Shown here: one piece after another, positions 6,753 through 30,810 of the stretch
Numbering within the stretch: position 1 is the first letter of the stretch
Layout of the letters: each line of letters opens with the position of its first letter
Origin: an uncultured Coriobacteriia bacterium
GTDB taxonomy: Bacteria; Actinomycetota; Coriobacteriia; Anaerosomatales; PHET01
Assembly (NCBI GenBank): GCA_963751505.1
Contig: CAVVUM010000005.1
Location: 5,122 to 69,121, forward strand
Direction of reading: 5' to 3'
Length of the DNA: 64,000 nt
Translations under genes and position numbers: made by a program
Notes under the pieces: generated by a model
The model's input: the letters and a program-made list of their open reading frames with translations, nothing else
What the model was told of the DNA's origin: nothing
The model's database searches: none

Positions 6753-7009
6753 CGCCGGCCCCTCGACCGTTCCGCCTCTTCGGCTTCGCCTCGACCCACC
6801 AGGCACTCGACGCGGAGGCCCTTCTCGACGACCTGGGCATCGAGGTCGTGCCGGTTCCGACCCCCACGGCTCTGGGTGCGCTCTGCGGCATCGCCTTGCG
6901 GGTCCCGTCGGGCGATGCGGAGCAGGGCCGCGATCTACCTCGAAAGGGCCTCGATCGAGCCCGCAAAGACGCTGGATATCGAGGACGTCTGAGCCCTCCC
7001 TTTCGTTGA
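6749..7009 (+). CDS. DUF3343-like putative Se/S carrier protein
   Basis: FASTHQALDAE, PVPTPTALGALCGIALR; GTG overlaps the desulfurase stop. 3' end uncertain (~6992-7009). Confidence 0.7.
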   Translation: MTPAPRPFRLFGFASTHQALDAEALLDDLGIEVVPVPTPTALGALCGIALRVPSGDAEQGRDLPRKGLDRARKDAGYRGRLSPPFR

Positions 7010-7054
7010 CTTAACGGGCCTCCGTCCCTATCCTGTTCGTAACTGCTGTTACAA
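7006..7054 (+). promoter_or_regulatory. Sigma70-type promoter with downstream palindromic operator
   Basis: TTGACT (7006-7011), 17-bp spacer, TATCCT (7029-7034); operator TCGTAAC-TGCT-GTTACAA at 7037-7054. Confidence 0.75.
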
Positions 7055-7155
7055 AGCCCTCACTGGTTGCCGCGACGCCCGGACAGCGCCGCGGTTCGGC
7101 GTCTTCAGACGTCGCCGAGAAGGGCGCGACGCGACGGGGTAGGAGGTGTCAGTTC

Positions 7156-8073
7156 GTGGGACTGACGCAACTCAATGTCTGGCTGGACGCGGTGTTCGTG
7201 ACGCTCTGGGTCTTCATCATCCTCGCGCTCTCGGGCCACTTCCTCGGCAACATCCTCACCGGGCGCGTCAAGCGGCGCTTCGGCAAGGAGTGGGCGTGGC
7301 CGCATCACGACAGCCACCCACCCGCGCTGCCCAAGTGGATGCACTTCCAGCACGTCGCCTGCATGATCCTGCTGGCGATCTCGGGACTCTACATCCGGTT
7401 CCCGGGCTTGTTCGGCCTGCCTGACGGGTTCCGCACGCCGATGCGTTGGGTGCACTACTTCGCGATGATCATGGTCACGCTCAACCTCATCTGGCGCCTG
7501 TGGTACGCGTTCTCATCGCGCCAGCGTGACTATCGCGAGTTCGCGGTCACCAAGCGCGACATCACGACCGCGCCCCAGGTCATCCTCTACTACATCTTCG
7601 TCAAGAAGAGCAAGCCGCACCTCGGCAAGTACAACGTCATGCAGAAGGGGACCTACATCGTCTTCGTCCCGCTGCTGATCGTGCAGGCCTTCACCGGGTT
7701 CGCACTGCTGACCTTCACCATCCCGTACATCAACATGTCGCCACGGGATTTGCTAGTAGGCTGGTGGCTCGGCGTGCTTCTCGGCTCGACCGACCTTGCA
7801 GGATGGTGGGCGCGCACGGCGCATTACATCATCAACTGGCTGTTCATCATCCTGACCACGATCCACATGTACCTGTCCGTGACCGAGGACTTCCCGGCGT
7901 TCCTGGACTTCTTCGGGATGGGTGGGCTCGACAAGCGCAGCGGCCACGATGATGGGCACGACGAGCACTGCAGTCAGAGCCGGCACCGGCGTATGCTTCA
8001 GCCGAGCATGCAGGATGACCGTCAGATAGGAAACGTTGGGTGGGCAACCGCTTCCCATACGCATGCGCGGTGA
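7156..8073 (+). CDS. Di-heme cytochrome b (HyaC/FdnI-like quinone-reactive membrane subunit)
   Basis: Several TM helices with His ligands (WMHFQH, RWVHY, TAHY, TIHMY) and GKYNVMQK. His/Asp-rich tail GHDDGHDEH. True stop probably ~8020. Confidence 0.85.
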   Translation: MGLTQLNVWLDAVFVTLWVFIILALSGHFLGNILTGRVKRRFGKEWAWPHHDSHPPALPKWMHFQHVACMILLAISGLYIRFPGLFGLPDGFRTPMRWVHYFAMIMVTLNLIWRLWYAFSSRQRDYREFAVTKRDITTAPQVILYYIFVKKSKPHLGKYNVMQKGTYIVFVPLLIVQAFTGFALLTFTIPYINMSPRDLLVGWWLGVLLGSTDLAGWWARTAHYIINWLFIILTTIHMYLSVTEDFPAFLDFFGMGGLDKRSGHDDGHDEHCSQSRHRRMLQPSMQDDRQIGNVGWATASHTHAR

Positions 8074-9015
8074 TGTTGATCGCGCTCTCCGCCCCGGCAG
8101 TCGCCGCGGCGGCTGAGTCGTCTTCGACGGCGACCGCGTCTGCCGAGGCGAGCCGCACCTACGACCTCGACTTCACGCTTCCCACGGCCGGCAAGTCGGG
8201 CTGCATGGTGTGCCACGGCGACCCGAACCTCGTGAAGCTCAGCTCCGAGAGCACGTCTTCGATCTTCATCGACCCGGCAGTGCTCGCGAACACCGCTCAC
8301 GCCGACACGGTGTGCACCGGCTGCCACCTCGACTTCGCCTACCAGACGCCCCACCAGAACGTCACAGCCGGCGCCACGTGGGTCGACGTTGCCAAGTCGG
8401 CGTGCAAGAACTGCCACTCCAACGAGTTCACCAAGTCGTCTCCGGGGCGCACTCCCCGTCGGGTGAACCGGGGCAGACGGACGAGGAGATCCAGGCCAAG
8501 CGACTCGCCGAGGGCAAGCCCCCCGTGACACCACTTTGCGGGGATTGCCACGGTTCTCACGAAATCTCCTACATCGACGTAGAACGATGGGAGAATCGGG
8601 GACCGCCGAGGTGCAACAGGCCGCGCAAGACGGTGCAGCTGCGATGCACGGGACCGGCGACGAGATGTGCGGCAGTTGCCACGAGGACCAGACCACGACA
8701 TACGCGGACTACTACCACGGGGCCGCGTACCGCGAGGGAGCGCCGGACGCGCCGGCGTGCTGGGACTGTCACGGAGCGCACGAGATGCTGCCCGCGAGCG
8801 ATCTGAGGTCGCCGGTGAACCCGGCCAACCTCGAGGAGACCTGCGGCAAGTGCCACGACGATCCCAACGAGGACTACGTGGAGTACGCGAAACTCGTTCA
8901 CAGCAAGGAGCAAGTCGAAGAAGAGGTACCGCTCTACACGATTTGGGAGTCGGCCAGAGCCGCCGTCGACGACGCGATCCAGACGGTGGGCTCGTGGTTC
9001 GGGGGCGAAGGGTAG
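8040..9015 (+). CDS. Secreted multiheme cytochrome c, 7 CxxCH motifs (frameshifted)
   Basis: Signal peptide; CMVCH, CTGCH, CKNCH, CGDCH, CGSCH, CWDCH, CGKCH. Confidence 0.88.
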
Positions 9016-9055
9016 CAGGGGGCCTGTGGGCCCCCCGCGGAAGGGGTAGGTAAGG

Positions 9056-10382
9056 ATGGCGCTACGACTACAGAGCACGCACCGGTAGGCTGCTCGCCAT
9101 CGCTCTTGGCGTCGCTGGCGTTCAGCGTCGCGCTGAGCGGCGGCGTCGCATTCGCGCAGGACCAGGAGTTGCAGCTCGACCCGGCGACTTTGCAGCAGCT
9201 GTTCCAGCAGCTGCAGTCCTCGCCGGTCATCGAGCAGACCTGCAGCGGGTGTCACGGCAACATCGCCGACACCGACAACTACTCCTCCGAGATCATCTTC
9301 ACGCACGCGAACCACATCATGCTGCAGTGCTCGTCGTGCCACACGCGCTTCCCGCACCGCCCTGAGGGCACCTCGCGTCCCACGATGAAGGGCTGCTGGG
9401 ACTGCCACGGGCTCACCCACGGTCCGATGGGCGAGCTCGCCACCGGCGAGTGCGAAGACTGCCACAAGACGCCCAAGGAGCGCCTGCGCCCCGCATTCCA
9501 CGGCTACGACTGGGCCGGCAAGCCGCACGTCGCGCCCGCGAAGGAGGCGTTCAACACGCGCTGCGCGATGTGCCACGACCCCGCGTCCTGCAACGACTGC
9601 CACGAGCAGAAGGCGATCGAGTGGACTCCGGACAGCTGGGGCTACGACTCCAACGGCGGCTGCCTCTCGTGCCACGGCAACCCGCTGCTCCAGAAGCAGG
9701 GCCTCGCGGGCGGCAAGTCGTTCCAGGTCAGCGGACTCGAGGAGTCCGTGCACCAGGACCTGACGTGCCAGAAGTGCCACACCGACTTCAACTACGAGGG
9801 CACCCCGGGCGCCACGCCGCTGTGGACGATCAACGCCAGCATCGCGTGCGCCGACTGCCACAAGAGCCCGACACGGGTGACGCCGAGAAGGACAAGAAGC
9901 TCTCCGAGCCGGTCGCGCTCTACAACAAGTCGATCCACGCCACGGCGCTCAAGGACGGCAACACCGACTCGGCGACGTGCGGCTCGTGCCACGGCGGCCA
10001 CTTCATCTACAGCACCGACAACGCGCTCGGCGCCGCGCGCATGCACGGCTCGTCGTACCGGGTCTGCGCACGCTGCAAGCAGCACGGCGACGAGTACGAC
10101 ACCTACGACGACTACTACCACGGCAAGGCCTACAAGGCCGGCGCGCCTGATGCGCCCGCGTGCTGGGAGTGCCACGAGTCCCACGACATCCTGCCCAAGA
10201 GCGACCCCGAGTCGAGCGTGAACGCGGCGAACGTCGGCGAGACCTGCGGCCAGGAAGGCTGCCACAAGGGCTCGAGCGAGGAGTTCGGCACGGAGGCTGC
10301 TGCTCTGATCCACCAGAAGGCACAGGCCCAGCAGGACAACCCGCTCCTGCGCCTCATCGCCAACCTGACCGGCGGCGGCTAG
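9056..10382 (+). CDS. Secreted multiheme cytochrome c: 11 CxxCH, one CxxCK(QH) and one Cx4CH (frameshifted)
   Basis: Signal peptide AFA-Q; CSGCH, CSSCH, CWDCH, CEDCH, CAMCH, CNDCH, CLSCH, CQKCH, CADCH, CGSCH, CARCKQH, CWECH, CGQEGCH. Confidence 0.88.
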
Positions 10383-10418
10383 GCCCGCCACCGCGCGATA
10401 GGAGGCCTGCGGCAGCCC

Positions 10419-12062
10419 ATGCGCCGCATCACCGACAAGCGAACAGTGATCTGGGGGGTGGCCGCGATTATTGCCGCGGCCGCCTTCCTGCTTGCGACCG
10501 CTGTCGCCGGTGACGCCGTGGAGAGCGACCAGCAGACGAGCGCGTCAGCCGAGGCGACGACCGCGCCGGTCATCGACACCGCTGCGCCGATAGAGCCGAC
10601 CCAGTGCGCGCCCTGCCACCTCGACCTCGGCAACGTGACCCAGCCGGGGCTCATCTTCAGCCACGGCAACCACATGCTCGTGAGCTGCGACGGCTGCCAC
10701 GCCCGGATGCCGCACCGCGGCAGCGGGACCGAGACCGTCCCGATGGAGGTCTGCTTCACCTGCCACGGCATCGCGCACGGGCCGCAGGGCGAACTCGCCT
10801 CGAGCGAGTGCCGCGACTGCCACACCAAGTCGTTCGTGCTGCGTCCCAAGACGCACACCGAGGACTGGAAGGCCAAGCCGCACGCGGACAAGGCCAACAA
10901 GACCGGCGTCAACGACTGCATGATGTGTCACGACGCGCCCAAGGACTGCGACGAGTGCCACGAGAAGGAGAACGTGGACGTCGGCAAGATGCCGGATGCG
11001 TACCACTCCCTCGTGCAGCCTCGCGACAAGGGGCCGTCGGTCAAGGTCTACCCGGACGGTCCCGTCTCGATGTCGCAGTGCCAGTACTGCCACCCCGACC
11101 TCGACGAGATCACGCCGGGCCGGCTCATCTTCGCCCACGGCGCGCACCTGCGGGCGCAACTATCGCTGCGAGGCGTGCCACACCGAGTTCGCGCACCAGG
11201 AGAACGGGACGAGCAAGCCCGACATGATGTCGTGCTACCGGTGCCACAGCGTCTACCACAACGGCGGCGGTCAGATCGCCGAGGGGCAGGACTGCTACAA
11301 GTGCCACCCGAAGTCCTTCGAGCTCATGCCCAAGGACCACACGATGCCGTTCATCAAGGGCGAGCACGGCAAGAAGTCGAACGAGGACCCCGCCGTACTG
11401 CGCGATGTGCCACCCGTCCGAGTTCTGCGTCGGCTGCCATCGCGGCGAGAAGGTGAGCCCGAACGCTCCGGGCAAGCCGGTCATCCCCGACGATCACAAG
11501 AAGGCGGCGTGGCGGCACCAGCACGGCGGCCAGTACCTCGCCGGCGAGGGTGCGTGCGGCTCGTGCCACGACGGACCCGTCGTGCAAGCGGTGCCACAAG
11601 ACCGTCATGCCGCACCCCGTCGGCTGGCTCGAAGGACCACTCGCCCGAGCCGGGCACGACGCACCGAGGACTGCAACATCTGCCACACGGACCGCAGTCC
11701 AAGTGCCAGAAGTGCCACCACCAGAACGTGCGCAGCGCGCCGAGCTCATCGAGAAGAACTGCACGCCGTGCCACGACGAGATGAAGCAGAAGCCGGCGAC
11801 CGAGATCAAGAACAAGGGCTTCGCCGAGCACGCCGTGCACTTCGACGTCGCAGAAGAAGAAGGGCAAGCCCTACAAGTGCGACGAGTGCCACGTGGACTT
11901 CGGCACGTCGCGCGGCGGCAAAGGAGCTCGAACTGCAGCAGGGGCACGACCTTCGCTTGTGCTACGACTGCCACGGCGCGCTCGACCCCTTCAACAAGCA
12001 GATCGCCCCGTACAAAGGCGCGGCGCTGTGCGTCCGTTGCCACAAGGACGTCGGACGTCTAG
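10419..12062 (+). CDS. Membrane-anchored or secreted multiheme cytochrome c, ~20 CxxCH motifs (several frameshifts)
   Basis: N-terminal hydrophobic helix; CAPCH, CDGCH, CFTCH, CRDCH, CMMCH, CDECH, CQYCH, CEACH, CYRCH, CYKCH, CAMCH, CVGCH, CGSCH, CKRCH, CNICH, CQKCH, CTPCH, CDECH, CYDCH, CVRCH. Confidence 0.87.
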
Positions 12063-12130
12063 CGGGATCAGCGGCGCGACCATGCGCGCTGACGTCACGA
12101 CGAGAGACACACAGAGGAGTACACACGCGC

Positions 12131-13286
12131 ATGAGTGAGGTTGCGAGCGCCGCCGCGCCGGCTGCAGGCCCTGACAAGAGCAAGTCGCTCGACCGTCTGG
12201 CTCACCGTAGCCATCGCGGCTGCTTGTCAGTTGCGATCCTCGGGTTCGCGGGCTACTTCGCCTACACCGTGTGGACCGAACTACCAGCGGGACCAGCTGA
12301 CCAACGCGCCGATCCGCCTCATCAAGGGCATCGAGGCCGAGGTCCGCAAGACGCCCAACGACGTCATCCTTCGCGTGCGGCTCGGCGAGGCCTACGGCGC
12401 AGCCGGCAAGTACGACCAGGCGGTCGAGCAGTTCAAGCAGGCGCTCAAGATCGACCCGAAGCACGTCGGTGCGTATCTGGACCTCGGCATGGTGGCCGTG
12501 CTCACCGAGAACGACGCGGCCGCCGAGCGGTACTTCAAGAAGGTCATCGAGCTCACCGAGACCGCGCAGATTCGCGAACGTGGACCAGCGTCGCGAGAAC
12601 GCCTTCTACAACCTGGGCTGCTCAAGCTCAAGCAGAAGAAGTACGAGGAGGCGGCCGGCTACTTCAAGGAGGCGCTGCGCATCCGCAAGGACGCCTCGGA
12701 CACCTACGTCTAGTCTCGCGCGTGCGCTGAGGGGCATGGGGGACACGGACGGCGGCGATCGAGAACCTCGAGATCGCGCTCGCCTTCGACCCGGGCTTCG
12801 CCGAGGCGCACTACACGCTCGGCGAGATCTACCGCGAGAAGAAGGACGACGTCAACGCGTCGTACCACTTCCACCAGGCCGCTCGGCTGCGCGCCGGATG
12901 CCGAGCCGCCCCAAGAGGCGCTCGCCGGCTTCGGCACCGCCTCGGACTGGGTCGCGAAGGCGGAGAAGGCTCAGGCAGCGGGGACCGTACCGAGCGCAAT
13001 CACGGCGTACTGGTGGCGCGCAACCTCGATCCGAAGACCTCGCTGCGGCCAAGCTGCACGGCGCGATACTCGACCGAGCGCCGAGAGCTCGAAGGATGCG
13101 ATCGAGGTCTACCTCGAGGCGCTGAAGCGCTGGCGCCGAAGGACAAGGCCGTCCTCGAGGCCCTGAAGCGCTCGAGCGCGAGAACCCGAAGATCGCCATC
13201 GGTGCGTACAAGGCGAAGCTCAAGAAGGACCCGAGCAACTCGATCGTAGAAGGCGCGACTCGACAGGCTGCGACCAAGCCAAGTAG
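12131..13286 (+). CDS. Membrane-anchored tetratricopeptide-repeat protein (frameshifted)
   Basis: TM segment, then TPRs: LGEAYGAAGKYDQAVEQFKQALKIDP, AYLDLG, AFYNLG, YEEAAGYFKEALRI. Confidence 0.82.
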
Positions 13287-13293
13287 CGTCATC

Positions 13294-14861
13294 ATGCGAA
13301 CCGGCACCGCGGAGGATCAGTTGACCAGAGCACAGAAGCGCAAGATCGTCATCGTCGTCATCCTCGTACTGCTGCTCGCGCTGCTTGGCGCGCTACTACC
13401 TGTACTACCGCAGCACGCAGAAGCTCGCGCTCGACATCTCGCCGGTCGACAACGAGTTCGTCGAGCCGCCGCAGTTCCTCTACTCGTTCAACGGCGCCAG
13501 ACACCGGCACGCGCATGCAGCGGCCGGTCGGCGTGCTCGTCGACGGGAGCACGGTGTACGTCGTCGACTCGCGGCGCCACGTGATCGACGTCTTCGACCT
13601 CAGCGGGGCTACAGGCCGCAGCTGTCGGCGCGTCAGAGACGGTCGACGCCGCTCTACATCGCGAAGAACCCCAAGGACGAGCAACATCTACGTCACCGAC
13701 CGCGCACCCGCTCGATCCACATCTTCACGCCCGAGGGCAAGTACCTCGAGCGACTTCGACCCCAAGCTGCCCAAGAACCAGCTCCCCGACTTCGACACCA
13801 AGCGGCGTGCAGTGGGCGCCGGTGGCGCTCGCGTTCGCGCCGGACGGCACGATGTACGTGACCGAGATCCTCAACGGCCATCGCCTGCTCATCTTCGACC
13901 CGAACGGCAAGTTCAAGAAGTCGGTCGGCACGTCGGGCATCGGTCGAACGAGGCCGAGCAAGGCGCCGGAGGTCTTCCAGTTCCCGAACGGGCTCGCGGT
14001 CCGGCAAGGAGGTCTACGTCGCCGACAGCAACAACCGGCGCGTCCAGGTCTTCGACAAGGACGGCGAGTTCAAGCGGATCATCGTCACCCAGGGCCTGCC
14101 GCGGGCATCGCGTTCCTCGGCACGCTTCCCGCAGGACGATGCCACGACGCCCGCAGCGCTTCGTCGTCGTCGACACGCTCGCGCACGACGGCACGATCTG
14201 GAGCGCCGAGGGCGAGAAGCTCGCTCAGCTTCGGCAGCAGGGCGTGCTCGAAGGCCAGTTCAGCTACCCGAACGGCGTCGTCGGTCGGGGCGCAGCAACA
14301 AGATCTTCATCACCGACACGGCCAACGGTCGCGTCCAGGTCTGGGGCTGGCCCGAGCAGGTCTCGCCGGTCCCGATCGCCGCGCATCCCGCAGAACTGGG
14401 TCTTGTGTCTGCTGCCGCTGCTGCTGCTGCCGCTGCTGCTCCTGCTTCCGCAAGCAAGCGCTTCTTCGCCACGGCGGACTTCGTGCTCGAGATGGTCGAC
14501 GCCGGCGAGGTCGACCTGATGCCGCAGCGCGGGCGCAAGTGGTACGTGACCGCCGAAGACTACGAGCAGCTCAAGGACATCGAGCAGGGCGACATCAAGC
14601 TGGCCGAGTTGCTGAACGAGGCCGAGCTACTCCGAGTCCGATGCGCGCGCGCTCAGGAGCGCCTCGAGATCGGCGAGCGCTGACTCGATCATCCTGTCGA
14701 TCGCGAAGCGTCGAAGGTGTTCTGCACGAGGACGAGGAGCTGCGCCGCCTCGCGAAGGTCCTGGAGATCGACGTCGTCGACCGCGTCGAGTACATCGAGC
14801 GGTTCACCCGTCGCGACACGACGTCACGAGCCGCCCGCCGGACGCACCGCGAGAGCAGTAG
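13294..14861 (+). CDS. NHL-repeat beta-propeller membrane protein with second TM and C-terminal cytoplasmic domain (heavily frameshifted; end approximate)
   Basis: PVGVLVDGSTVYVVDS, FQFPNGLAV, VYVADSNNRRVQVF, GQFSYPNG, IFITDTANGRVQVW; poly-Leu TM near 14410-14450. Confidence 0.8.
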
Positions 14862-14894
14862 TGCGGAACGCCTGACGAATCTGGCCGAAAATGC

Positions 14895-14948
14895 TTGACG
14901 AACCTGTGTGCGGCACATAGAGTGTGCACGTTGTAACTTCTGTTACAA
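14895..14948 (+). promoter_or_regulatory. Sigma70-type promoter of the hydrogenase operon with perfect palindromic operator
   Basis: TTGACG (14895-14900), 17-bp spacer, TAGAGT (14918-14923); operator TTGTAAC-TTCT-GTTACAA at 14931-14948. Confidence 0.8.
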
Positions 14949-15244: not shown

Positions 15245-16596
15245 ATGGCCATAACCAGGCGACAGTTCGTCACCCGTTGGGTGCCCTTGCTGCCGCCGTT
15301 GGCATGAGCCAGGCCGAGGTCTCGAAGATCACCGAGGCCTTCGCTGGCAACGGCACGACTGCTCGGCGGCACGCTGCGGCAAGCCGAAGGTCGTATGGGT
15401 CCACGGCGCTGAGTGCACCGGTTGTTCGACGTCACTTCTGGGCCTCTTTGAGGACGTCGGACCGGCAAGGCGATTCGAGGGGTACGGCGATCACCACGTC
15501 GGCTGCAGCGCTGCGGTCTCGCGGCGTGAGTCATCCGACGGCGCTCGACGCAGCGGCTGCACCATCGGACTCACGCTCTCGAGTGGCGACTCGTCAACGC
15601 CGATCGACGGCCAACGCGTGAACATCGCGGACGTCGTTGTCGACTTCATCGACCTCAGTATCACGAGACCGTCATGGGCATGGGCGGCGACCTCGCGGCC
15701 CAGTGGCTGGAGGACTTCAGCGACATGCGCCGACACGACACCGAGCCGTTCGTGCTCGTCGTCGAGGGCGCGGTCCAGGACAAGACGCACGGCGGCGCGT
15801 GGAACGACGACCAGCGACGCGCAGCGTGCCGTGGTGCTCGATCGGCATGTCGGCGACGACGGCGGACCGCTCGAGCACGACATGCCCGAGACGTCGTCGC
15901 GACCTCGCACAAGGCCAACTGCGTGGCGATCATCCCGATCGGCCAGTGCGCCACGCTTCGGCGGCTATCCCGGCTGCAAGCCGCCGATCAGCGCCACGCG
16001 CCGACGGGCTGGCGGCTTCAACCCGACGCAGTCGCAGACCGGCGCCATGGGCATCTACGACTACCTGCTCGCGCACGGCGCACTGCCGGCGCGCGCCGAC
16101 AAGGTCATCAACGTTCCGGGCTGCCCGACCAACCCGTGGTGGTTCGTCCTGACGGTCGTCGCTGGCTCGTCGACCTGTCGACCCGTCCGCTGGTCCGCTC
16201 GGCGACGTGCTCGGATCCTGCACGGCTCGCAGGCATCGACCTCGACCGCCGCCGACTGCGACCGCCGCCTCAAGGCCGTCTACCCGACTCCGATCCACAG
16301 CCCGTACTGCCCGCGCTACCGCGACTACGTCAAGGGCGTGTTCGCCGCGCAAGCCCGGCGATCCCGGCTGCCTGCAGAAGCATCGGCTGCAAGGGCCCGT
16401 CGACCAACTCGCTGTGCGGCACGCACGGCTGGAACAGCCAGCAGCCGCAGAACAGCCGCGATGTCAGCCGGCAGGCGTCTCCGCTCAGCCTGCAACGGCA
16501 ACAAGCCGGCGGCCACTGCACGCCGGCTGGCCATCCCTGCATGGCCTGCACCGAGAAGGGCTATCCGGACGCTTCGTCCCGTTCGTGGAGCGCTAG
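15245..16596 (+). CDS. [NiFe] hydrogenase small subunit with Tat signal (frameshifted)
   Basis: MAITRRQFV twin-arginine signal; VVWVHGAECTGC, VLVVEGAV, GQCA.FGG, INVPGCP, IHSPYCPRY, GCKGP, HCT.AGHPCMACTE. No C-terminal TM anchor. Confidence 0.9.
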
Positions 16597-16620
16597 AGAA
16601 GGAAAGGAGGGAAAAACTAG

Positions 16621-18657: not shown

Positions 18658-18675
18658 AAACAGGAGGTGAGAGAT

Positions 18676-19932: not shown

Positions 19933-19976
19933 GGTTTCCCTGAACAACGACGTGGGCATGCATGATGCATGCTGAT

Positions 19977-20007
19977 GGGGGTCCCAGGATTACTCCCTGG
20001 GGCCCCC
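19977..20007 (+). terminator. GC-rich hairpin after the hydrogenase-cytochrome operon
   Basis: GGGGGTCCCAGG ... CCTGGGGCCCCC inverted repeat; weak U-tract. Confidence 0.5.
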
Positions 20008-20120
20008 TCATATTGGTGCGTGTCAGTTCGGCGGTGACCGCGTCTCCGCAGTACGATACGCATATCAGCGAAACCCAGCTATTGGAAGATGGTGATCCGG
20101 TTGTCCTTCGGTCTCCGACG

Positions 20121-21362: not shown

Positions 21363-21471
21363 GTACCTGAGGGTCGCTCGCGCTGCGGTCGAGCACGCCG
21401 CCGACCGCGCGCTTGATGCGGTCGACGGCGGTTGCCGTCGACGCCGCCATCGCGGAGCTCGGTGATGCGAC

Positions 21472-22370
21472 GTGAGTCCCGACTTGCGGACGCGCCTGGC
21501 AGGGCTGACGACGCGCAAGGCGCTGCTCTCGGGCCTTGCCGGAGTGGCTGTGCTCGCGCTCGTGGTCTTTGCCTTCTCCGCGCTGTCTCCTTCGGGTACC
21601 GCTCGGGGGGCAGCGGCGACCAGTCGACGTCCGGCACATCGACTGCGAGTCTCACGCAGCAGTCCTTGGCCGCGCTCGCGTCCGGTGACGCGACCGAGGC
21701 GGTCAGACTCGCGGAACTCGCGGTGAGGAGAGCCCGAAGTGATCCGGTAGTGAAGGCGGCGCTCGTCAAGGCGACGGCGGTGCAGAAGTCGCAGTCGGCC
21801 TCGGTGACGAAGTCCGTGCAGTCGACATCCAAGATGGAGCGGAAGGACTCGACCTCGAGCGGGTCCGGCTCGACCTCGGGAGAATCCTCCCCTGGGGGCT
21901 CGGCCTCCACTGACACCTCGCCCGCGGCTCCACTCCTGAGCAGCCAGCGCCCACCGACGACGCCTTCCTCACGAAGGTCCCGAAGATGGCGGCGCTTCTG
22001 CCGAGCGAGTTCACCAAGTTCGCTCTTGGCGATATCACGACCACGGAGGACCAGGCGCAGGTGTCGGCCACGTCGGCCGAGCAGTCGTCAGCCATCGGGC
22101 AGATCATTTGGACCGTTCACCAGCGCGCGGACGCCGCTCGCGCAGGCCTTCATGGCCAGCACGACCCAGAAGCTCTACGCAAAGACGCATCCACCAACCG
22201 ATCGACGGCGCCGAGGCGTACTTCGGCACCGACGGCACAAGGTATGCTACTGCGACCTATGTACGCGGCCGGTAGTCTTCGAAGTGCTCGTCGCTGTGGG
22301 CGACTCAAGACCCGCAGGCAGCAAGTCGCAGGCGGTTGCCGCAGCCGAGGCGTTCAAGGACGCTCCCTAG
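21472..22370 (+). CDS. Membrane-anchored extracellular protein with Ser/Thr-rich linker (frameshifted)
   Basis: N-terminal TM helix GLAGVAVLALVVFAF, S/T/G-rich stretch, globular C-terminal domain. Confidence 0.6.
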
Positions 22371-22407
22371 CGCCCGAGTGACGCTCTAGACGTTGGGTAG
22401 GGTTCGT

Positions 22408-24221
22408 ATGAAGCGCATCCTCGCATTCCTGTTCTTGCTCGCGGCCCTTTCCGCATCCGCGCTGCCGGCGTTCGCAGCGTCGGACGACGCGATCCCGGGC
22501 GTTGTGGCCGCCAGCCCGATTGCGGATTCGCTCGACCAGTTCACCGACCTCCGCGACGTGTACGCGATCAGCCTGATGGCTGGGCAGGCCCTGAACGTGA
22601 GCCTCACCGGGTCCGCTGGAACCAACTTCGATCTTCACCTCATATAAGCCGGGCACCGCCTCGGCAGACTTCGTCAGTGCTGTGGCCACGTCCCGCAACT
22701 CCTGGTATCCGGATTCGATCTCGTACACCGCGCCCACGACAGGAACGTACTACCTTGAGGTGTTCGCGTACTCGGGCGCGGGTGACTACACGGCTACCTA
22801 CAGCAAGGTCACCCCCGATGCGGCGGCTGACAACCAGATCCCAGGTGTCGCCGCTCCTGCCAGCCCGATTACCGGCTCACTTGTGAAGAACGGCGGCGGG
22901 TCTTGGTGATGCCCACGACGTGTACGCATTCGACCTCTGGCGGGACAGCTCTTCACTGCGACTCTCACCGATCCGAGCACCGCGGAGTTCACCGACTTCG
23001 ATCTGTGGCTGTTCGGCCCCAGTGCAACGACTGTCAACGGCACTGCGGTTGCGGGTGCGGACGGCCGCTACTACCCGAACCGCATCGAGTACATCGTGCC
23101 GTCGAGCGGGACCTATTACCTTGACGTGTACGCGAATGCGGGCGCGGGCACCTACCAGGTCGCCTACACCGTGGGGGACCCTGCCCACCTACACGATTTC
23201 GACCTATGCGGGGCCTGGAGGCACTATCAGCCCGGTCTCGCCGGTCGTCGCCCAGGGATCGGACAAGACGTTCACCATCACGCCGAAGGTCGGTTACCAT
23301 ATCACCTCGCTCGTCATCGATGGCACACCGATCAACCCCAGCTCGAGCTACACGTTTTGGAACGTGACCAAGTCACACACCATCTCCGCGGTCTTCGCGC
23401 TCAACACCTACCAGCTGAAGTACACCGCAGGTACGGGCGGCTCCATCTCCGGGTCCGCCACGCAGGTTGTGGCGTACGGCTCGAGCGGCGCCCGAGTTAC
23501 GGCGGTGCCGGCCACGGGCTATCGCTTCGTCCGATGGTCCGACGGCAGTACGAGTGCTTCCCGCACAGACAGCAACGTACACGGCAACCTGACCGTCGCG
23601 GCAAGTTTCGCCAAGTCCACGTCGATCTCACTGACCGCACCCGCCACCTCAGACTACGCCTCGGCCAAGCTCTACGGCTATCTCAAGTACGGCTCGGGAA
23701 GTGCCCTTGCCGGTAAGCCGGTCGCGATCGAGCAGTACGTCGGTTCCGGGGCCTGGAAGAAGATCGCCACGGCCACCACCACCTCGAGCGGGTATTTCAC
23801 CTACACCGCCAAACCGACGGTCAAGACCGCGTATCGCGCCCGCTATCTCGGCGACAGCGTCTACAACGCGTCTGCCACCTCCTCGCGCTGGGTGCTGCCG
23901 AAGGTGCGCCTGAGCCGCACGAGCTCGTTGTCTACCCTCACCTACGCCAAGACCTACTACGCCACCGGCTACATCGAGCCGAGGCACTACTCGACCTCGG
24001 GCAAGGTGCGCATCTACGCCTACAAGCGCGCGAGCAACGGCACCTACTACTACAAGGCGAGCTACGCGGCGGCCTACAGCTACTACTCGGCGACCAAGAC
24101 CCGCTACAAGGCCGGGGTCAAGCTGCCGTCCAAGGGTGCTTGGAAGCTCGTGGCGTATCACGCCGCCGACAGCTCCAACGCCGCGACCTGGGGCAGTGCG
24201 GACTACCTGACGGTCAAGTAG
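22408..24221 (+). CDS. Secreted surface protein: two pre-peptidase C-terminal (PPC)-like domains, InlB-B-like repeats and a basic Tyr-rich C-terminal domain (frameshifted)
   Basis: Signal peptide MKRILAFLFLLAALSASALPAFA; twice DVYA...DFDL...TYYL.V.A; YRFVRWSDG repeat; K/Y-rich C-terminus. Confidence 0.7.
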
Positions 24222-24330
24222 CAGGCGCAGTGAGGCGCCCGCGAGTGCGGTTGACGGGCGAGTACTAGTGCCTCCGAAGGATGCGTTGTCGCTGCTCGGG
24301 GGCGTACAATGGAAGTTCACCTGAATCAAG

Positions 24331-27300
24331 GTGAACGCCCATCGGACTCGTGATCTGAGCACTCGGAAGGGAGTAGCGGCACTGACGCATCGGCCGGCCA
24401 CAGCATCACGCGCGTGGCACCAGAAGGCGGTCGCGGCAGCGGTCGTCCTTTCGGCGTTTGTGTTCGCCGCGCTGGGCTTCGCGCTGCTCGGAGTTTCCCC
24501 GGCGCATGCGGTGACCGTCTCGGCCACGGCTGGCACCGGCGCCAACGTCACCGGTATTGGCGCGATCCCGTGGTCGAACGCGGGCAACATCACCACTGTC
24601 GGCACGCCTTACGCGACCGTGCGTCTCGGGAATGCGGAAACAAGCAACTACCTGCTGGGCAACAACTTCGGCTTCAACGTACCCGCAACGGCCACCATCA
24701 CCGGCATCCAAGTCACCATCATGCGCCAGAGCAGTGCGGCCGCTGCACCGTACATCAGGGACAACGTGGTCAGGCTGGTCAAGGGCGGCACCATCACTGG
24801 AAGCGACTATGCCGCGACTACCACCAACTGGCCCGGCTCCATGGCCGCTGCCCCCCCCTACGGCGCTGCACCGGCCGACCCCCTGTGGGGCACCACCTGG
24901 ACGCCAGCTGATATCAACAGTCCCGGTTTCGGTGTCGTTCTCTCAGCCACGCACCCCGCCAACGGTGCCCCCCGAACGGCGAGTGTCGACTACATCCAGG
25001 TCACCGTGGACTACGCTCCGGATTCGACCAAACCCGATGTGGTGGTCAACCAGGCTGTTGGCCAGGCGGACCCAACCAACTCTAAGACGATCTCCTATGA
25101 CGTGGTCTTCAGCGAGCCAGTCACGGGCGTCGACGTGAGCGACTTCTCGGTCGGCGGAAGCGCTACTGGCTTCGCAGTATCGAGCGTGACCGGCTCAGGG
25201 AGCACGTATGTGGTCACCGCGAGCGGAACGACGGTCACGGATGGCACCGTCGCGCTGTCGATGCCCGCGGGCGGGGCACAGGATGCGGCTGAAAACACCA
25301 ACAATGCTTCAACCTCGGCCGATAGCAGCGTCACCTACGACGGTACGCCGCCCACGGTCTCGGTCACCGCTCCATACGCCGATGAGACGCTCACGGGCAC
25401 GGCAACCACCGTCGGCGGCTTGGTAGCCGATGCTGGCACCGGCGTTGCCTCGGTAGGCGTGGTCATCCAGTACACCGACGTTCCCAGCGCAACGACGTAC
25501 TACTGGAACGGAATAGGGTGGCAGACGACTCCCTACCTGAACCCGGCGACCATCACTGGGGCCAGCTGGGCCTACGACTGGGCGTTCAGCCCGGCGCGTC
25601 AGCAGCCGACAGGACGTACACCATCCAGGCAACTGCGGCCGACGCCGTTGGGAACGGCGCCACCTCGGCCGCGGTGACCGGCGTCACCGTGCACAACCAG
25701 TTCACCCTCACCTACAACGCCGGCCCGGGCGGCTCCATCACCGGCACCACGCCCCAGACGGTGAACCACGGGGCGAGCGGCACCGCGGTGACCGCCACGC
25801 CGAATGCCGGCTACCGCTTCGTCAGCTGGTCTGACGGCAACCTCAACGCCACGCGCACCGACGCCAACGTGACAGCCGACCTCACGGTGACGGCGACCTT
25901 CGCGATCAACACCTACACCCTCACCTACATCGCCGGCCCGGGCGGCTCCATCACCGGCACCACGCCCCAGACCGTGAACCACGGGGCGAGCGGCACCGCG
26001 GTCACCGCCACGCCGAATGCCGGCTACCGCTTCGTCAGCTGGTCTGACGGCAACCTCAACGCCACGCGCACCGACGCCAACGTGACAGCCGACCTCACGG
26101 TGACGGCGACCTTCGCGATCAACACCTACACCCTCACCTACCTCGCCGGCCCGGGCGGCTCCATCACCGGCACCACGCCCCAGACGGTGAACCACGGGGC
26201 GAGCGGCACCGCGGTCACCGCCACGCCGAATGCCGGCTACCGCTTCGTCAGCTGGTCTGACGGCAACCTCAACGCCACGCGCACCGACGCCAACGTGACA
26301 GCCGACCTCACGGTGACGGCGACCTTCGCGATCAACACCTACACCCTCACCTACAACGCCGGCCCGGGCGGCTCCATCACCGGCACCACGCCCCAGACGG
26401 TGAACCACGGGGCGAGCGGCACCGCGGTGACCGCCACGCCGAATGCCGGCTACCGCTTCGTCAGCTGGTCTGACGGCAACCTCAACGCCACGCGCACCGA
26501 CGCCAACGTGACAGCCGACCTCACGGTGACGGCGACCTTCGCGATCAACACCTACACCCTCACCTACAACGCGGGCCCCGGCGGCTCCATCACCGGCACC
26601 ACGCCCCAGACCGTAAACCACGGGCCGAGCGGCACCGCGGTCACCGCCACGCCGAATCCGGCTACAGCTTCGTCAGCTGGTCTGACGGCAACCTCAACGC
26701 CACGCGCACCGACACCAACGTGACAGCCGACCTCACGGTGACCGCGACCTTCGCGGTCGCCACCTACACCCTCACCTCTCGGCGGGCCCGGCGGCTCCAT
26801 CACGCCACTCGCCCCAGACGGTGAACCAGGGCGGCAGCGGGACCGCGGTACACCTCACGCCGGATCCCGGCTACCACGTCGCTGACGCTGGTTGACGGAG
26901 CGTCAAGGGCCCGCGCACCGACGCCAACGTGACGGCCGACCATCACGATGGCGGCGACCTTCGCGCTCAACACCTACACGATCACGACGAGCCCGGGTGC
27001 CAACGGCACCATCACGCCGCGCGAACCCGAGCGTTGCGCACGGTGCGAACCAGACGTTCCTCATCGTGCCCGAACGCTGGCTTCCACGTGGCCGACGTCG
27101 TGGTCGACGGGGTATCGCAGGGGCCGATCGGCACCTACACGTTCTCGAACGTCACGGCGGCCCACACGATCGCGGCGACCTTCGAGGTCAACACCTACAC
27201 CCTGACCTACACCGCCGGCACCGGTGGCACGATCACCGGCACCTCGCCGCAGACCGTCAACCACGGGCGGACGGCACCGCCGTCACCGCCGTGCCCGACG

Positions 27301-30300
27301 CCGGCTACTCCTTCGTGAAGTGGTCCGACGATGTCATGACCGCCACTCGCACCGACACCAACGTGCAGGCCGATCTGTCGGTGACCGCGATCTTCACGGC
27401 GAGCACCACCTACACGATCACGTCATCGGCAGGCGCGAACGGCTCGATCTCGCCGCTCGGCGACACGACCGTGCCTGAGGGCGGCAGCCAGACCTACACC
27501 ATCACGCCCGACACGGGCTACCACGTTGCGAGTCTCACCGTCGACGGCGCGCCCGTGTCGCCCGCGACCGAGCTACACCTTCACCAACGTGACGGCGGCC
27601 CACACGATCGCTGCGACCTTCGACCTCAACACCTACACCCTGACCTACACCGCCGGCACCGGCGGCTCGATCACGGGCACCACGCCGCAGACCGTCGACT
27701 CACGGCGCGGACGGCAGCGAGGTCACCGCCGTGCCGGACACCGGCTACACCTTCAAGAAGTGGTCCGACAACGTCATGACAGCCGCGCGCACCGACACTA
27801 ACGTGCAGTCGGACCTCACGGTGAATGCGGTCTTCAGCAAGCTGCCGATCACGCCCGGCGAACAGACGATTCCGCCGCACGTGGCCACCTCGGAGGACAC
27901 CGACGCGTGCGCCATGTGTCACCGGTCGCACACGGCGGCGTCGCAGGTCTCCGCGATGGGTGCGCTCGAGACCACGTTCAACGCGCTGATAGTCGGTGCG
28001 ATCTCGCCAGAGCAGGGCGACGTGCCGCTGTGCTACTCCTGCCACGGCGTGGACAGCCTCGGCGCGCTGACCGACGTGCAGACGGCGTTCGAGGAGCGCT
28101 CCTCCCACAAGCTCGCGCCCGAGACCTCGGACGTACGGGCCCGAGAACAAGCAGTGCAGCTCGTGCCATGACAGCCACGGCACCGAGAAGACGGCCGAGG
28201 GCGACCCCTTCCCGGGCCTGCTCAGGAGTCGTGACGCGAGCGACCACGTCGTGATGAGCGGCGACGAGTACTGCACGTCCTGCCACGACCAGAACATCAA
28301 GGGCGCGCTGGGACGGCATCGAGATCTGGCGTCAGACCGCGCACGTCGACCTGACGCCCACCGTGTCGGGCACCGAGGTCGTCTGCTCTGTGTGCCACGA
28401 GGCGCACGGCTCGTCCAACACCGCGCTGATCCGCACGACGCTCACGCCGCCGTCGGTCGAAGACACCGTGGCGGTTCCGGGCAACGATCGCTGGCTCTGC
28501 TACGCCTGCCACCCCGGCGGGCTCGCGACGTACTCGGGCGGTCTCACCTACGAGGCCTCGACCCACGGCTCTTCCGATGCGACCGTCGCCATCACCACCG
28601 AGTGGGCGAAGCGCTTCCCGGCCGGTTCCGCCGAGACGAGCCGCGCGGCAGGGGAGTGCCAGGTCTGTCACGCGGCCACCGGTCGCAACGACGGCACCGG
28701 TAAGCCCTACCCGAAGCTGCAGGACGCGGTCGGCCCGGCGCTCTGCTACCGCTGCCACGACCGGGGCTCCACCATCGCGAGCGACGTCGCCTCTCTCTAT
28801 CCGACGACCACCGCCGACGTGCCCGAGGTCATCGCGGCCTACGGCGCGTCGCCCACGACCCAGCAGTTCTCGCTCGTGCAGGTCTACTCACGGGAGTCGA
28901 GTGCTGTCGGCCGGTCTCCCCTCGCCGCGACAGGCGATCGAGGGCACCGTCGGGCCGATGGCCGCCGGTGACATCGACGGCGACCCGCGCGCCGAAGCCG
29001 AGGCGATCGTCGTGCGGCCGGGCGGCGTCGGTGTTACGGTCCTGCGCCGCTCAGCACTTGCGGGTCTGACCGAGACCTCGGCGAATCTGCTCGCCGAAGC
29101 GTCGTATGTCGCCATCGGCGATGTGCTGAGCGACACCGGCGACCTGAACGAGGTCGTCGCCGCCACCGACAACGTCGTTCGCGTCTACCGCTGGAGCGGT
29201 TCGACACTGACGTTCGTGCCGTCCACCGCGACCACGGTGAGCGGCACCATCTCGGGCCTCACGACCGGCGATGTGCTCGGCACGGATGGTGACGAGATCG
29301 TGCTCACCACCAACGCGCCCGACCAGCTCTACATCATCGACGGCGGCTCGGGCTCGCTCTCCGTGAACGGCCCCTACGCGACTCAGGCGTTGCCCAAGGG
29401 TCCGTCCGTCGGCGATCTCGACGGGGCCGCCGACGACAAGGGCGAGATCGCGGTCGCCTTCTCGGGCGAGGCCGTCTCGCCGATGGTGGGCATCTACGGG
29501 CCGACCGGCAGCTCTCATCACCAGCGCAGGGGCGACCGGCGGAGGCGAGAGGCGAGCGCAGCGTGCGCTGATCCGTGACGTCCTGTGGGGGACCCAGGCG
29601 GCGGGTCGCACGCGGGCCGAGGTCACGGTGAGCGTTGCCGACCCGGTCGACGGAGCCGCCGACGGGGCCCGCGTCGATGTCTTCCCGCAAGACACCGGCA
29701 ACGACCTGGCTTCTGCCGTCTCCTACTCGCTCCCGGCATTCAGCAACCCCGCCGAGATGGACACCGCCGACATCGATGGCGACGGCCACAAGGAACTGCT
29801 CGTCGCCCGCGCCGGCTCGCGCGTCCAGACCGCGACGCCGAATCCCCCGGGCTGAGCGCGGTCAAGACCAACGGCGACGGCACCGCTATCGCCGGCGACA
29901 CGTTCTACCAGGCGGCCGGTATCGAAGCCGCCGATTCGGGCCCGGGTTCCGCCTGGGTCGCAGCGGCCGAGATGGGCGACGTCGGCGCCTCGAAGCACGC
30001 CGTAGGCGCGGTGGAGGACACGCACGTCTCGACCGAGACCGCGTCGTTCGAGCGTCACGTCGAGTGTGTGGACTGCCACAACGTCCACGAGGCCACGAGC
30101 ACGCCGGCGCCGGCTCCACTCGCCTACGGCGCCATCAAGGGCACGCAGGGCGTCTCTGTGGCCAACTCGCCCGCGGGCCAGATCACCTACACGCAGAAGC
30201 CGCGCATCGACAACGAGTACGAGCTCTGCATGAAGTGCCACAGCGGCTGGTCGGCCTCGACAGACACCCGCAACATCGCCAAGGAGATCGACACGCGCAA

Positions 30301-30810
30301 CGCTTCGGTTCACGCGATCGAGGAGACCTCGACGACCAGCAACGCGACGGCCGGCTCGTTCGTCTCCGGCTGGGGCAACGACTCGGTCCTGCACTGCCGA
30401 GACTGTCACGGCACCGCGGACAAGACGGCTGTCCAGGGCCCGCACGCCTCAGATCAGGCGCCACTGCTCGTGAAGCCCTACTGGGGTGTCACGCCGAGCG
30501 ACGCCTCGCAGCTGTGCTTCGACTGCCACCGCCGCGAGGTGTACTTCACCGGCGCCGAGGACGGCGTCCCTGCCTCCACGAGCCGCTTCTACAACGACTC
30601 TGGTGCCGGGGCGCGCCAAGCTTCTGCACAGCTGGCACACGCAGACCCAGGGCAGGAGCTGCTCGGCCTGTCACGTCACGCACGGCGGGACCGTCAAGGC
30701 GCTCCTCCGCGTCGGACGTCGGCTACACGGTCGCGGTCGACGGGAACGGCGGCTCGTGCCTCAACGGTTGCCACAACGGCGACTCGCACGCGTACGCGCC
30801 CAACCCCTAG
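24331..30810 (+). CDS. Giant (~2100 aa) surface multiheme cytochrome c with Ig-like domains, tandem InlB-B-like repeats, ~14 heme motifs and an FG-GAP-like propeller (many frameshifts)
   Basis: Signal peptide ..PAHA-V; Ig-like (FSEPVTG, DGTPPTVSVT); 71-aa repeats; CAMCH, CYSCH, CSSCH, CTSCH, CSVCH, CYACH, CQVCH, CYRCH; GDIDGD/GDLDG/ADIDGDG repeats; CVDCH, CMKCH, CRDCH, CFDCH, CSACH, CLNGCH. No new RBS plus signal peptide seen between segments, but a split into two genes cannot be excluded. Confidence 0.72.
25704..26980 (+). repeat. Tandem direct repeat, 213-bp unit (71 aa): five near-identical copies and one degenerate copy
   Basis: Unit starts (ACCCTCACCTAC) at 25704, 25917, 26130, 26343, 26556 and ~26768; encodes TLTYxAGPGGSITGTTPQTVNHGASGTAVTATPNAGYRFVSWSDGNLNATRTDANVTADLTVTATFAINTY. 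Confidence 0.97.

Follow-up and report, generated by a model that had tools for sequence, protein, structure and literature searches.

OmcS-type multihaem cytochromes are known as outward respiratory wires, and OmcS filaments are approximately 4–5 nm wide. In Desulfovibrio, periplasmic [NiFeSe]/[NiFe] hydrogenases and formate dehydrogenases (FDHs) feed cytochrome c3 and Hmc/Qrc. The locus described here, from an uncultured Coriobacteriia bacterium of the order Anaerosomatales (OPB41), resembles the Desulfovibrio systems in having a group 1a-like hydrogenase or, in relatives, an FDH, predicted to be exported and lacking its own cytochrome b, with multihaem cytochromes leading to a membrane complex. 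It differs from Desulfovibrio in its OmcS-family carrier, its monoderm host, a longer large subunit (approximately 610–830 residues) and the lack of a cleavable C-terminal extension.

With OmcS of Geobacter sulfurreducens (PDB entries 6EF8 and 6NEF) and its osc cluster, the hexahaem cytochrome of the locus shares six CxxCH motifs in register, the His pattern, the best-matching fold and a nearby β-propeller gene. Here, however, the host is monoderm, there is no β-barrel, the gene lies behind a dehydrogenase operon, identity in the structural alignment is approximately 25% and a filament is putative. The β-barrel secretion or anchor protein of the Geobacter osc and omcE clusters has no counterpart among the cluster proteins scanned, and no Omp85 was found in the six genomes searched. 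The ImdcA-PdcA-CwcA-OcwA model of Thermincola is likewise porin-free and places an OmcS-like hexahaem within the wall (PMC7911101), and the candidate CwcA locus of T. ferriacetica (L082) has the TPR–NHL–hexahaem order seen here, with no hydrogenase or FDH found in it. Membrane entry in Thermincola is of the NapC type, whereas here it is a cytochrome b with 7-, 12- and 20-haem proteins.

The same gene order is present in EMTCatB1 (1c0406-1c0413), whose 6-haem protein has been described as a probable subunit of the FDH (PMC7943316), and a Parvivirga cluster of multihaem cytochromes and a molybdopterin enzyme (MCL4079376-90; PMC9686372) is, we infer, the same locus. The name OmcS has 0 occurrences in the main text of either paper, and passages of PMC9686372 and PMC7943316 contain no mention of a hydrogenase version of the cassette.

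Gene content and assembly state

The window, a stretch of 64,000 nucleotides (contig CAVVUM010000005.1, positions 5,122 to 69,121), contains a real cluster at positions 7006–30810. A CxxCH count, which a preliminary description of the sequence had proposed as a check, gave 57 canonical motifs in this region, compared with a mean of 0.32 (maximum of 2) in 60 base shuffles. In the feature list, gene ends within the cluster are approximate, the TPR, NHL and hydrogenase proteins were identified via intact orthologues, and some of the cofactor-gene names at 43..6700 were read off translations, with no family scan behind them.

43..6700, +, fdhD and Mo/W-cofactor genes (moeA, MOSC/moaB-like, aminotransferase class V; Pfam FdhD and MoeA_N, orthologue PF00266, synteny)
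7006..7034, +, σ70-like site 5' of the cytochrome b gene (promoter scan; hint only)
7156..8016, +, cytochrome b of the FdnI/HyaC/CbcB type, probable menaquinone interface, ends approximate (PF01292, His pairs)
8079..9015, +, 7-haem cytochrome c, CbcA-like, with N-terminal signal and amphipathic C-terminal tail (motif count, profile)
9069..10382, +, 12-haem cytochrome c (11 CxxCH and one CX4CH), CbcC-like by position and count
10419..12062, +, 20-haem cytochrome c (motif count)
12135..13290, +, TPR protein, membrane-anchored, ends approximate (intact orthologues)
13385..14835, +, NHL β-propeller protein, membrane-anchored, ends approximate (intact orthologues)
14895..14923, +, σ70-like site in the gap 5' of the hydrogenase (promoter scan; hint only)
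15245..16596, +, [NiFe] hydrogenase small subunit with twin-arginine leader, without C-terminal membrane anchor
16650..18657, +, [NiFe] hydrogenase large subunit, group 1a-like, with Cys rather than Sec
18664..19932, +, OmcS-family hexahaem cytochrome c of the hydrogenase-linked type (profile, fold, tree)
20115..21362, +, cytoplasmic P-loop/AAA-fold protein (orthologues)
21432..22381, +, conserved exported protein of approximately 270 residues, no family assigned
22440..24221, +, secreted surface protein with InlB B-type repeats, start approximate
24331..30810, +, giant surface cytochrome of approximately 2,150 residues with 14 haems
39569..41814, +, 24-haem NapC/NirT-type membrane cytochrome, outside the operon (PF03264)

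The cofactor genes directly 5' of the cluster provide a context for the FDH cassette of relatives. The cluster cytochromes carry 59 haems, with motifs distributed by gene as 7, 11 canonical plus one CX4CH, 20, 6 and 13+1; the NapC-type protein has 21+3. The preliminary description had placed a single supercluster of co-oriented genes here, and all of these genes were found in place on the plus strand, but the region probably comprises at least two transcription units, with a gap of approximately 400 bp 5' of the hydrogenase. Its counts of 7, 20, 6 and 14 haems are confirmed, whereas its ~13-haem protein has 12 (11–13 motifs in relatives). The ~24-haem NapC/NirT-type gene lies 9 kb away, as it had reported, with unrelated genes between, and conservation, which it had left to be checked, is reflected in matches to the 12-haem protein in 38 of 41 genomes of relatives. 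The promoter scan returned three σ70-like sites against 1.7 expected, which is chance level.

Most cluster genes are split by single-base indels (2–25 per gene), with the heaviest load in the hydrogenase (17) and hexahaem (25) genes. These numerous frameshifts look like sequencing errors; no in-frame stop occurs in six aligned cluster genes, and most relatives have intact orthologues. Decay of the hydrogenase/hexahaem copy is a residual possibility beside sequencing error.

The earlier view of the host as a monoderm actinobacterium without a porin gene agrees with its placement in the Coriobacteriia and with searches for Omp85, which was found neither in its own genome (59% complete) nor in five of five near-complete relatives. 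No β-barrel family was detected among the cluster proteins scanned, as expected for a monoderm host.

The hexahaem cytochrome and its paired enzymes

Judged by its profile and by the modelled fold of an orthologue, the hexahaem cytochrome is an OmcS-family protein. The profile matches OmcS (PDB entry 6EF8) with an E-value of 6.6e-11 over residues 9–405, the six CxxCH motifs being in register over the full length; a single-sequence search of the PDB returned chance matches only. The model of the orthologue from genome G008 gives a VIA Z of 10.4 (r.m.s.d. of 4.2 Å, 227 residues aligned), with the next match at 4.9, and Foldseek with the same model ranks OmcS first, a moderate match (E-value of 1.5e-3, TM of 0.33). 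The 12 haem-ligand His residues are invariant or nearly so in 119 sequences. The six distal His residues are present, and a His three residues past the first CxxCH, present here and invariant in the 119 sequences, aligns with OmcS position 16, which we take to be the inter-subunit haem ligand. Complex prediction for the hexahaem and the hydrogenase small subunit (pair from G009) gave a score of 0.00, which is uninformative either way, and no C-terminal likeness was found between the 20-haem protein and the hexahaem.

The hydrogenase small subunit has a Tat leader and Fe–S ligands, the large subunit has the L1 and L2 motifs, and the nearest solved and curated relatives belong to group 1a; export of the enzyme is predicted. 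Cut-offs of the curated NiFeSe families are not reached (290.7 of 600 and 258.6 of 780 bits). The large subunit stops at the L2 His without a C-terminal extension, here and in 15 of 16 sequences, some of which come from overlapping loci. Elsewhere the genome encodes a membrane hydrogenase of the conventional kind, complete with cytochrome b and protease, so H2 uptake would be possible without the locus.

A survey of 90 genomes of the order yielded 113 OmcS-type hexahaems, of which 44 immediately follow a Tat hydrogenase and 58 an FDH-like enzyme (102 in all), while 11 follow neither. Viewed from the enzymes, a hexahaem gene is directly 3' of all 58 FdhB-like genes and of 44 of the 46 hydrogenase large-subunit genes. 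The hexahaems form two enzyme-specific clades in a quick tree (SH-aLRT of 99 and 94), and no cytochrome b gene was found beside either the hydrogenase or the FDH-like enzyme. Because the FDH-like enzyme occupies the slot more often than the hydrogenase across the order, the locus is not H2-specific. Outside the order, a profile search found no such enzyme in 56 of 57 loci, and adjacency of NHL and hexahaem genes is common; from this pattern the enzyme genes look like an insertion into an older NHL–hexahaem module. The NHL protein probably helps to assemble or anchor the hexahaem. The P-loop/AAA-fold gene occurs behind hydrogenase-type hexahaems, and a canonical Walker A motif is unmatched in six of six orthologues.

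On this evidence, a single lineage has duplicated an OmcS-type gene, and each copy goes with its own dehydrogenase, predicted to be exported; this would give the OmcS family a new job and provide a concrete route across the Gram-positive wall.

The membrane head and the giant surface cytochrome

The head of the cluster resembles Geobacter CbcB/A/C (Cbc5), as the preliminary description had recognized: a PF01292 cytochrome b adjoins 7-haem and 12-haem cytochromes, as in CbcBA/CbcC. At E ≤ 0.001 the 7-haem profile matches a single PDB entry, 28PB (E-value of 4.4e-7 over approximately 150 positions), which is probably CbcA, judging from review text that prints '2BPB'. Passages of PMC13591261 give CbcA an Eapp of −279 mV and describe electron transfer with the 12-haem CbcC. 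CbcA possesses a C-terminal transmembrane helix with a b-haem His, whereas the 7-haem protein here has no C-terminal transmembrane segment, and hydropathy analysis finds none in nine of nine orthologues. The C-terminal half of the 12-haem protein is homologous to the 7-haem protein. The 20-haem protein is an addition relative to Cbc5, and its gene is duplicated along with the enzyme cassette in several relatives. The head is probably fed by H2 or formate and may therefore run inward, unlike Geobacter Cbc5.

The 24-haem NapC/NirT-type protein (PF03264, 42.7 bits against a cut-off of 24.1) has an N-terminal membrane helix and is a probable quinol oxidase. An MqnA-family gene is present in 33 of 41 genomes and was not found in the host's own genome (59% complete); quinones were undetected in both cultured isolates of the order (PMC9686372).

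The giant cytochrome consists of a leader, an Ig-like part, approximately 9–10 InlB B-type repeats, eight haems, an FG-GAP β-propeller and six further haems. The fusion of repeat stalk and cytochrome is real, with frame 2 open at 27644–28168, a stretch that runs from the final repeat over haem motifs 1 and 2. These two haems are homologous to the hexahaem N-terminus (P of 99.5). The profile has no match in the PDB, and the model is confident for the propeller only (residues ~310–690). Longer homologues fused to a stalk were sought and not found, although this counts as weak evidence. CFE_2239 of Carboxydocella (PMC6085454) is alike by description, as a large secreted multihaem protein with an adhesin-like part encoded 3' of a hexahaem gene; it has 17 haems compared with 14 here, and its description mentions neither an FG-GAP propeller nor a repeat stalk.

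Direction of electron flow

The preliminary description had proposed a porin-free wire from H2 to minerals. The porin-free conduit holds up, with an OmcS-family hexahaem that the description had not recognized, whereas outward flow from H2 is doubtful and the locus is not H2-specific: a hydrogenase outside the membrane and wired straight to a mineral would leave the membrane uncharged, the cultured relative Anaerosoma does not reduce Fe(III) despite a similar set of cytochromes (PMC9686372), and the FDH-like enzyme is commoner in the slot. Since such a direct wire would conserve no energy, we favour inward flow, with a probability of roughly 0.5: the hexahaem would be the electron carrier of the exported hydrogenase, passing electrons from H2 through the 20-, 12- and 7-haem cytochromes and cytochrome b to a predicted menaquinone pool. 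The gene content, OmcS homology, order-wide pairing and absence of both a membrane anchor and a cytochrome b are observed, and from them we infer the steps of the flow. The exported enzyme would oxidize H2 and release protons outside. The hexahaem, assembled with the help of the TPR and NHL proteins and probably joined head to tail into a short polymer within the wall, would take the electrons. Downhill transfer through the CbcB/A/C-like head into menaquinone would be the charge-separating step, after which the 24-haem NapC-type protein may re-oxidize the quinol and surface cytochromes hand them on to Fe(III), humics or an electrode. It is likely that the stalked 14-haem protein docks on the haem site left free at the end of the hexahaem chain and brings the wire into contact with solid surfaces, so use of the wire outward or in reverse may also occur.

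Inward flow draws support from the OmcS homology, the enzyme pairing with its two clades, the probable CbcA match, the MqnA-family genes of 33 genomes, growth of both cultured members of the order on H2 or formate when an acceptor is supplied (PMC9686372) and, in the relative EMTCatB1, transcripts of the FDH genes and the following 6-haem gene within the top 10% (PMC7943316). Several observations stand against it: the Geobacter CbcBA is described as outward (bioRxiv 2021.04.15.440034), the genome has the conventional membrane hydrogenase, the isolates lack detected quinones and the host's own incomplete genome a detected MqnA, the fold match is moderate, 11 of the 113 hexahaems are unpaired, and the hydrogenase and hexahaem genes carry the most indels. 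The two cultured members (PMC9686372) make flow direction and filament formation directly testable. Members of the order are frequent in subsurface, oil and electrode communities, and the direction of flow matters for H2/formate cycling, biocathodes and biocorrosion.

An outward conduit, in which electrons pass from menaquinol through cytochrome b and the 7/12/20-haem proteins to an OmcS-type filament capped on minerals or cells by the 14-haem protein, with the hydrogenase as an accessory, is possible but doubtful. It would fit the enzyme-free order multihaem–TPR–NHL–hexahaem–large multihaem of loci outside the order, including that of T. ferriacetica, the role of CwcA as an OmcS-like cell-wall wire in the published Thermincola model (PMC7911101), the direction of CbcBA in Geobacter (bioRxiv 2021.04.15.440034) and the N-terminal homology of the 14-haem protein to the hexahaem. 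Further support comes from the cluster of multihaem and molybdopterin-enzyme genes that Khomyakova et al. highlight in the Fe(III) reducer Parvivirga (PMC9686372), and from Carboxydocella, whose Fe(III) reductase is proposed to be an adhesin–cytochrome fusion (PMC6085454). However, an H2-oxidizing enzyme on the same wire would presumably short-circuit the membrane, a separate hexahaem clade for each enzyme is left unexplained, Anaerosoma with its similar cytochromes does not reduce Fe(III) (PMC9686372), and the 14-haem gene is absent from the region fetched in two of ten relatives.

A broader conjecture, which we consider unlikely, is that Anaerosomatales build enzyme-loaded nanowires, that is, an OmcS-type filament dedicated to an exported hydrogenase (in the sister cassette, to formate dehydrogenase) with a stalked 14-haem adhesin cap. 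At the surface of a mineral, a metal or a partner cell, such a wire would let the Gram-positive cell turn H2 or formate into electrons and the reverse.

Electron uptake is improbable; here the stalked cytochrome and hexahaem would draw electrons from a low-potential solid or partner cell, and the enzyme would make H2 (or formate) at the surface, to be consumed by a partner or by the membrane hydrogenase of the same cell. In EMTCatB1, the dominant organism of a methanogenic biocathode, the FDH cassette is highly transcribed with the circuit closed (FDH genes at ~1250 TPM, 6-haem gene at 2716 TPM) and less so in two control conditions (PMC7943316). The host genome of the present locus encodes its membrane uptake hydrogenase separately, and for Methanococcus it has been proposed that a secreted Tat hydrogenase forms H2 from Fe0 (PMC6181927). 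Strong expression at a cathode, however, also fits use of H2 or formate formed there, only the Fe–S subunit among the cassette genes examined passed an FDR of 0.05 (hexahaem FDR of 0.64; PMC7943316), and suitable low-potential donors are presumably rare in most habitats.

Least probable is a hexahaem that serves as a monomeric or stoichiometric third subunit, with the multihaems as a cell-wall electron store and neither filament nor exchange with solids (or, as a sub-case, a decaying copy), which would suit a hexahaem transcript only ~2x those of FDH in EMTCatB1 (PMC7943316), Parvivirga appendages reported as 0.8–0.9 nm wide (PMC9686372), thinner than OmcS filaments, and the many indels, but sits poorly with the invariant His at the OmcS-16 position, the retained NHL companion and stalked 14-haem cytochrome, and, for decay, the stop-free frames and intact orthologues.

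Gene content, sequence quality and host

All of the genes that the preliminary description assigned to the cluster are present, and all were read on the + strand in six-frame translation. Haem motifs number, gene by gene, 7, 12 (11+1), 20, 6 and 14 (13+1) in the cluster and 24 (21+3) at 39.6–41.8 kb. The earlier numbers of 7, ~20, 6, ~14 and ~24 therefore stand, and the cytochrome put at ~13 haems has 12. Canonical CxxCH motifs within 7006–30810 total 57, where 60 shuffled sequences gave 0.32 on average.

7006–30810, + strand: cluster under study
15245–18657, + strand: [NiFe] hydrogenase genes (large subunit, 16650–18657)
18664–19932, + strand: six-haem cytochrome c (hexahaem)
20115–21362, + strand: P-loop/AAA-fold protein
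39569–41814, + strand: 24-haem NapC/NirT-type membrane cytochrome
41957–42033: tRNA-Pro(cgg), directly downstream of the NapC-type gene
63216–63292: tRNA-Thr(tgt)

Single-base indels are so frequent that annotation was taken from intact orthologues in relatives. Alignments gave 3 indels in cytochrome b, 2 each in the 7- and 12-haem genes, 9 in the 20-haem gene, 17 in the hydrogenase small subunit and 25 in the hexahaem, the higher counts possibly being inflated by divergence; these six alignments contain no in-frame stops. Our reading is that the indels are errors of sequencing; the genome bin is 59% complete. The hydrogenase cassette is also more broken than adjoining genes in few-contig assemblies of relatives (G011, G024 and G031), perhaps through homology-based polishing missing novel genes. 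The cluster is separated from the NapC-type gene by genes (at 31300–34500 and 38227–39399) for a peptidoglycan-binding protein, an NlpC/P60 hydrolase, an MCP and, judged by eye, a PilT-like ATPase, with synteny in the relative G008.

Named homologues are mostly from Coriobacteriia, Anaerosomatales or Actinobacteria, and the closest loci carry Coriobacteriia-type names, except three under Eubacteriales; the order is probably Anaerosomatales (OPB41), the order name being inferred. The host is a monoderm, as had been proposed together with a porin-free cluster: Omp85 was found neither in its own genome (59% complete) nor in any of five near-complete relatives (control positive in 7 of 14).

The hexahaem and its probable partner enzymes

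On sequence and modelling grounds, the hexahaem is an OmcS-family protein. A profile of ten hexahaem sequences found OmcS (6EF8) over its whole length (E 6.6e-11), and a structure model of the G008 orthologue (pLDDT 75.8) had OmcS as best match in both Foldseek (E 1.5e-3, TM 0.33) and VIA-align (Z 10.4, r.m.s.d. 4.2 Å, 227 aligned; next match 4.9). Twelve histidines, all readable in the window, are invariant or almost so across 119 hexahaem sequences, including one aligned with OmcS His16, which we take to be the inter-subunit ligand. According to PMC12203936, a histidine from the next subunit ligates haem 5 of OmcS.

The expected conservation in relatives was borne out, with the 12-haem protein matched in 38 of 41 genomes and the hexahaem (E ≤ 1e-45) in 70 of 90 genomes from the order. 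Pairing was tabulated for 113 of 114 hexahaem, 58 of 59 FdhB-like (formate-dehydrogenase-like, FDH) and 46 hydrogenase rows, leaving out second halves of split genes and hydrogenase rows weaker than 1e-21 (other enzymes). The hexahaem lies directly behind an FdhB-like gene in 58 cases, behind a hydrogenase large subunit in 44 and behind neither in 11; it is the next gene after 58/58 FdhB-like and 44/46 hydrogenase genes (descriptive counts, kin not being independent). Taking a single cytochrome b gene from each genome (73 in all), a cassette no more than 30 kb away holds FDH (19), hydrogenase (14), both (6) or neither (1), and in 33 it is off the contig or farther away, again descriptively, with kin not independent. 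The conserved unit runs 20-haem protein, TPR, NHL, enzyme, hexahaem and accessory genes, and several genomes have two copies. A quick tree of 51 proteins separates 14 hydrogenase-linked from 12 FDH-linked hexahaems (SH-aLRT 99 and 94); the best match of the window's protein is of hydrogenase type.

The contig opens (G000:C5:2-307, L103) with part of the gene (~270 aa) that forms the tail of such cassettes, arranged as in the FDH–hexahaem cassette of G008, which suggests that an FDH cassette lies just past the contig end; none was found in the organism's own assembly (59% complete). The P-loop/AAA-fold protein follows hydrogenase-type hexahaems; in relatives the place behind FDH-type hexahaems is taken by a 12–14-TM membrane protein. 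In many genomes of the order the FDH genes are split at one point.

The 69 hexahaem loci fetched comprise 12 of this order's type, one (L044) in which both enzymes flank the hexahaem, and 56 others; the scan patterns demanded the first haem motif and its histidine, so that this histidine is no independent evidence there. Profiles found neither enzyme in the 56, which include Chloroflexota, Thermincola and Neobacillus and many short contigs, and an NHL gene lies upstream in ~38 (counted by eye). The simplest reading takes the enzyme as a later insertion into a pre-existing TPR–NHL–OmcS module. L044, from outside the order, runs hydrogenase large subunit, hexahaem, FDH genes, and its hydrogenase retains a 24-residue extension. 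L043, L045–L056, L067 and L096 (mostly Chloroflexota) combine 10-haem, 8-haem, TPR and NHL genes with at least one OmcS-like hexahaem and large multihaem proteins in which the hexahaem N-terminus recurs; they make up a broader family of candidate wires in monoderms.

The component parts are of known kinds. The element that may be new is the OmcS–dehydrogenase pairing, of which no published description was found in the open literature searched.

Hydrogenase and cytochrome b head

The closest solved structures and curated families of the hydrogenase are group 1a [NiFeSe] enzymes, with scores under family cut-offs. The small subunit carries a twin-arginine leader and no C-terminal anchor. The large subunit, ~610–830 aa with long insertions across the window and orthologues, ends at its last histidine, as do 15 of 16 related sequences, so that no maturation protease would be needed. 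Such a Tat-type, group 1a-like enzyme without C-terminal extension may represent an unclassified subgroup. Elsewhere the genome encodes an anchored hydrogenase of conventional type, together with a cytochrome b and a protease (C11/C9). A second hydrogenase large subunit, with a single in-frame TGA close to its C-terminus that probably encodes selenocysteine, occurs in many genomes of the order.

Cytochrome b and the 7- and 12-haem proteins repeat the make-up of Geobacter CbcB, CbcA and CbcC, as described in bioRxiv 2021.04.15.440034 and PMC13591261. CbcA has a membrane anchor that the 7-haem protein lacks. The only PDB match of the 7-haem profile at E ≤ 0.001 is 28PB, probably CbcA. An MqnA-family gene occurs in 33 of 41 genomes and was not found in the organism's own (59% complete); PMC9686372 gives quinones as undetected in the order's two isolates. 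A second cytochrome b copy (G000:C13:51339-52073) has no adjoining multihaem cluster, and such copies are common across the order.

Direction of electron flow

H2 oxidation outside the membrane with direct coupling to a mineral translocates no charge. The potentials of H2 and menaquinone are about −414 and −74 mV. For CbcA, −279 mV is given in PMC13591261. By these values, flow from H2 through a CbcA-like protein to menaquinone would be downhill and electrogenic. For both reasons we favour, at a probability of roughly one half, a model in which the hexahaem serves the enzyme as input wire and output runs through the NapC-type protein, acting as quinol oxidase. The hydrogenase would oxidize H2 outside the membrane, electrons would enter the predicted wire and run inward, downhill and electrogenically, to menaquinone, and the NapC-type protein would oxidize quinol on the output side.

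The first two haems of the giant 14-haem cytochrome, histidine included, are homologous to the hexahaem N-terminus (P 99.5, E 2.8e-22), a likeness that could let this protein cap a chain of hexahaems. A cap-like protein fits an outward conduit, a rather unlikely alternative, better than the inward model. Electron uptake with H2 evolution would suit the cap better too, and is less probable still. The middle of the giant cytochrome is an integrin-like propeller. The window's version of this cytochrome forms a single reading frame with ~9–10 InlB B-type repeats, six of them making up a 213-bp tandem array (93% identity) whose copy number is possibly misassembled; the repeat stalk is absent from all 11 orthologues examined.

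PMC9686372 describes growth of Parvivirga with Fe(III) on either H2 or formate, and no Fe(III) reduction in Anaerosoma, whose cytochrome set is similar. Biocathode strain EMTCatB1 has an identical gene order; with the circuit closed, the six-haem gene reached 2716 TPM, FDH genes ~1250, upstream multihaem genes 142–273 and TPR 57, with wide replicate spread and no significant hexahaem change (PMC7943316). These transcripts support a separate, strong transcription unit of enzyme and hexahaem, and neither direction of flow. Other multihaem clusters in the genome lie at C6:48044-49942 (17 motifs), C7:17704-18445 (10), C8:4676-5824 (17) and C10:88706-90179 (5), the last resembling, by eye, a cbb3-type oxidase region.
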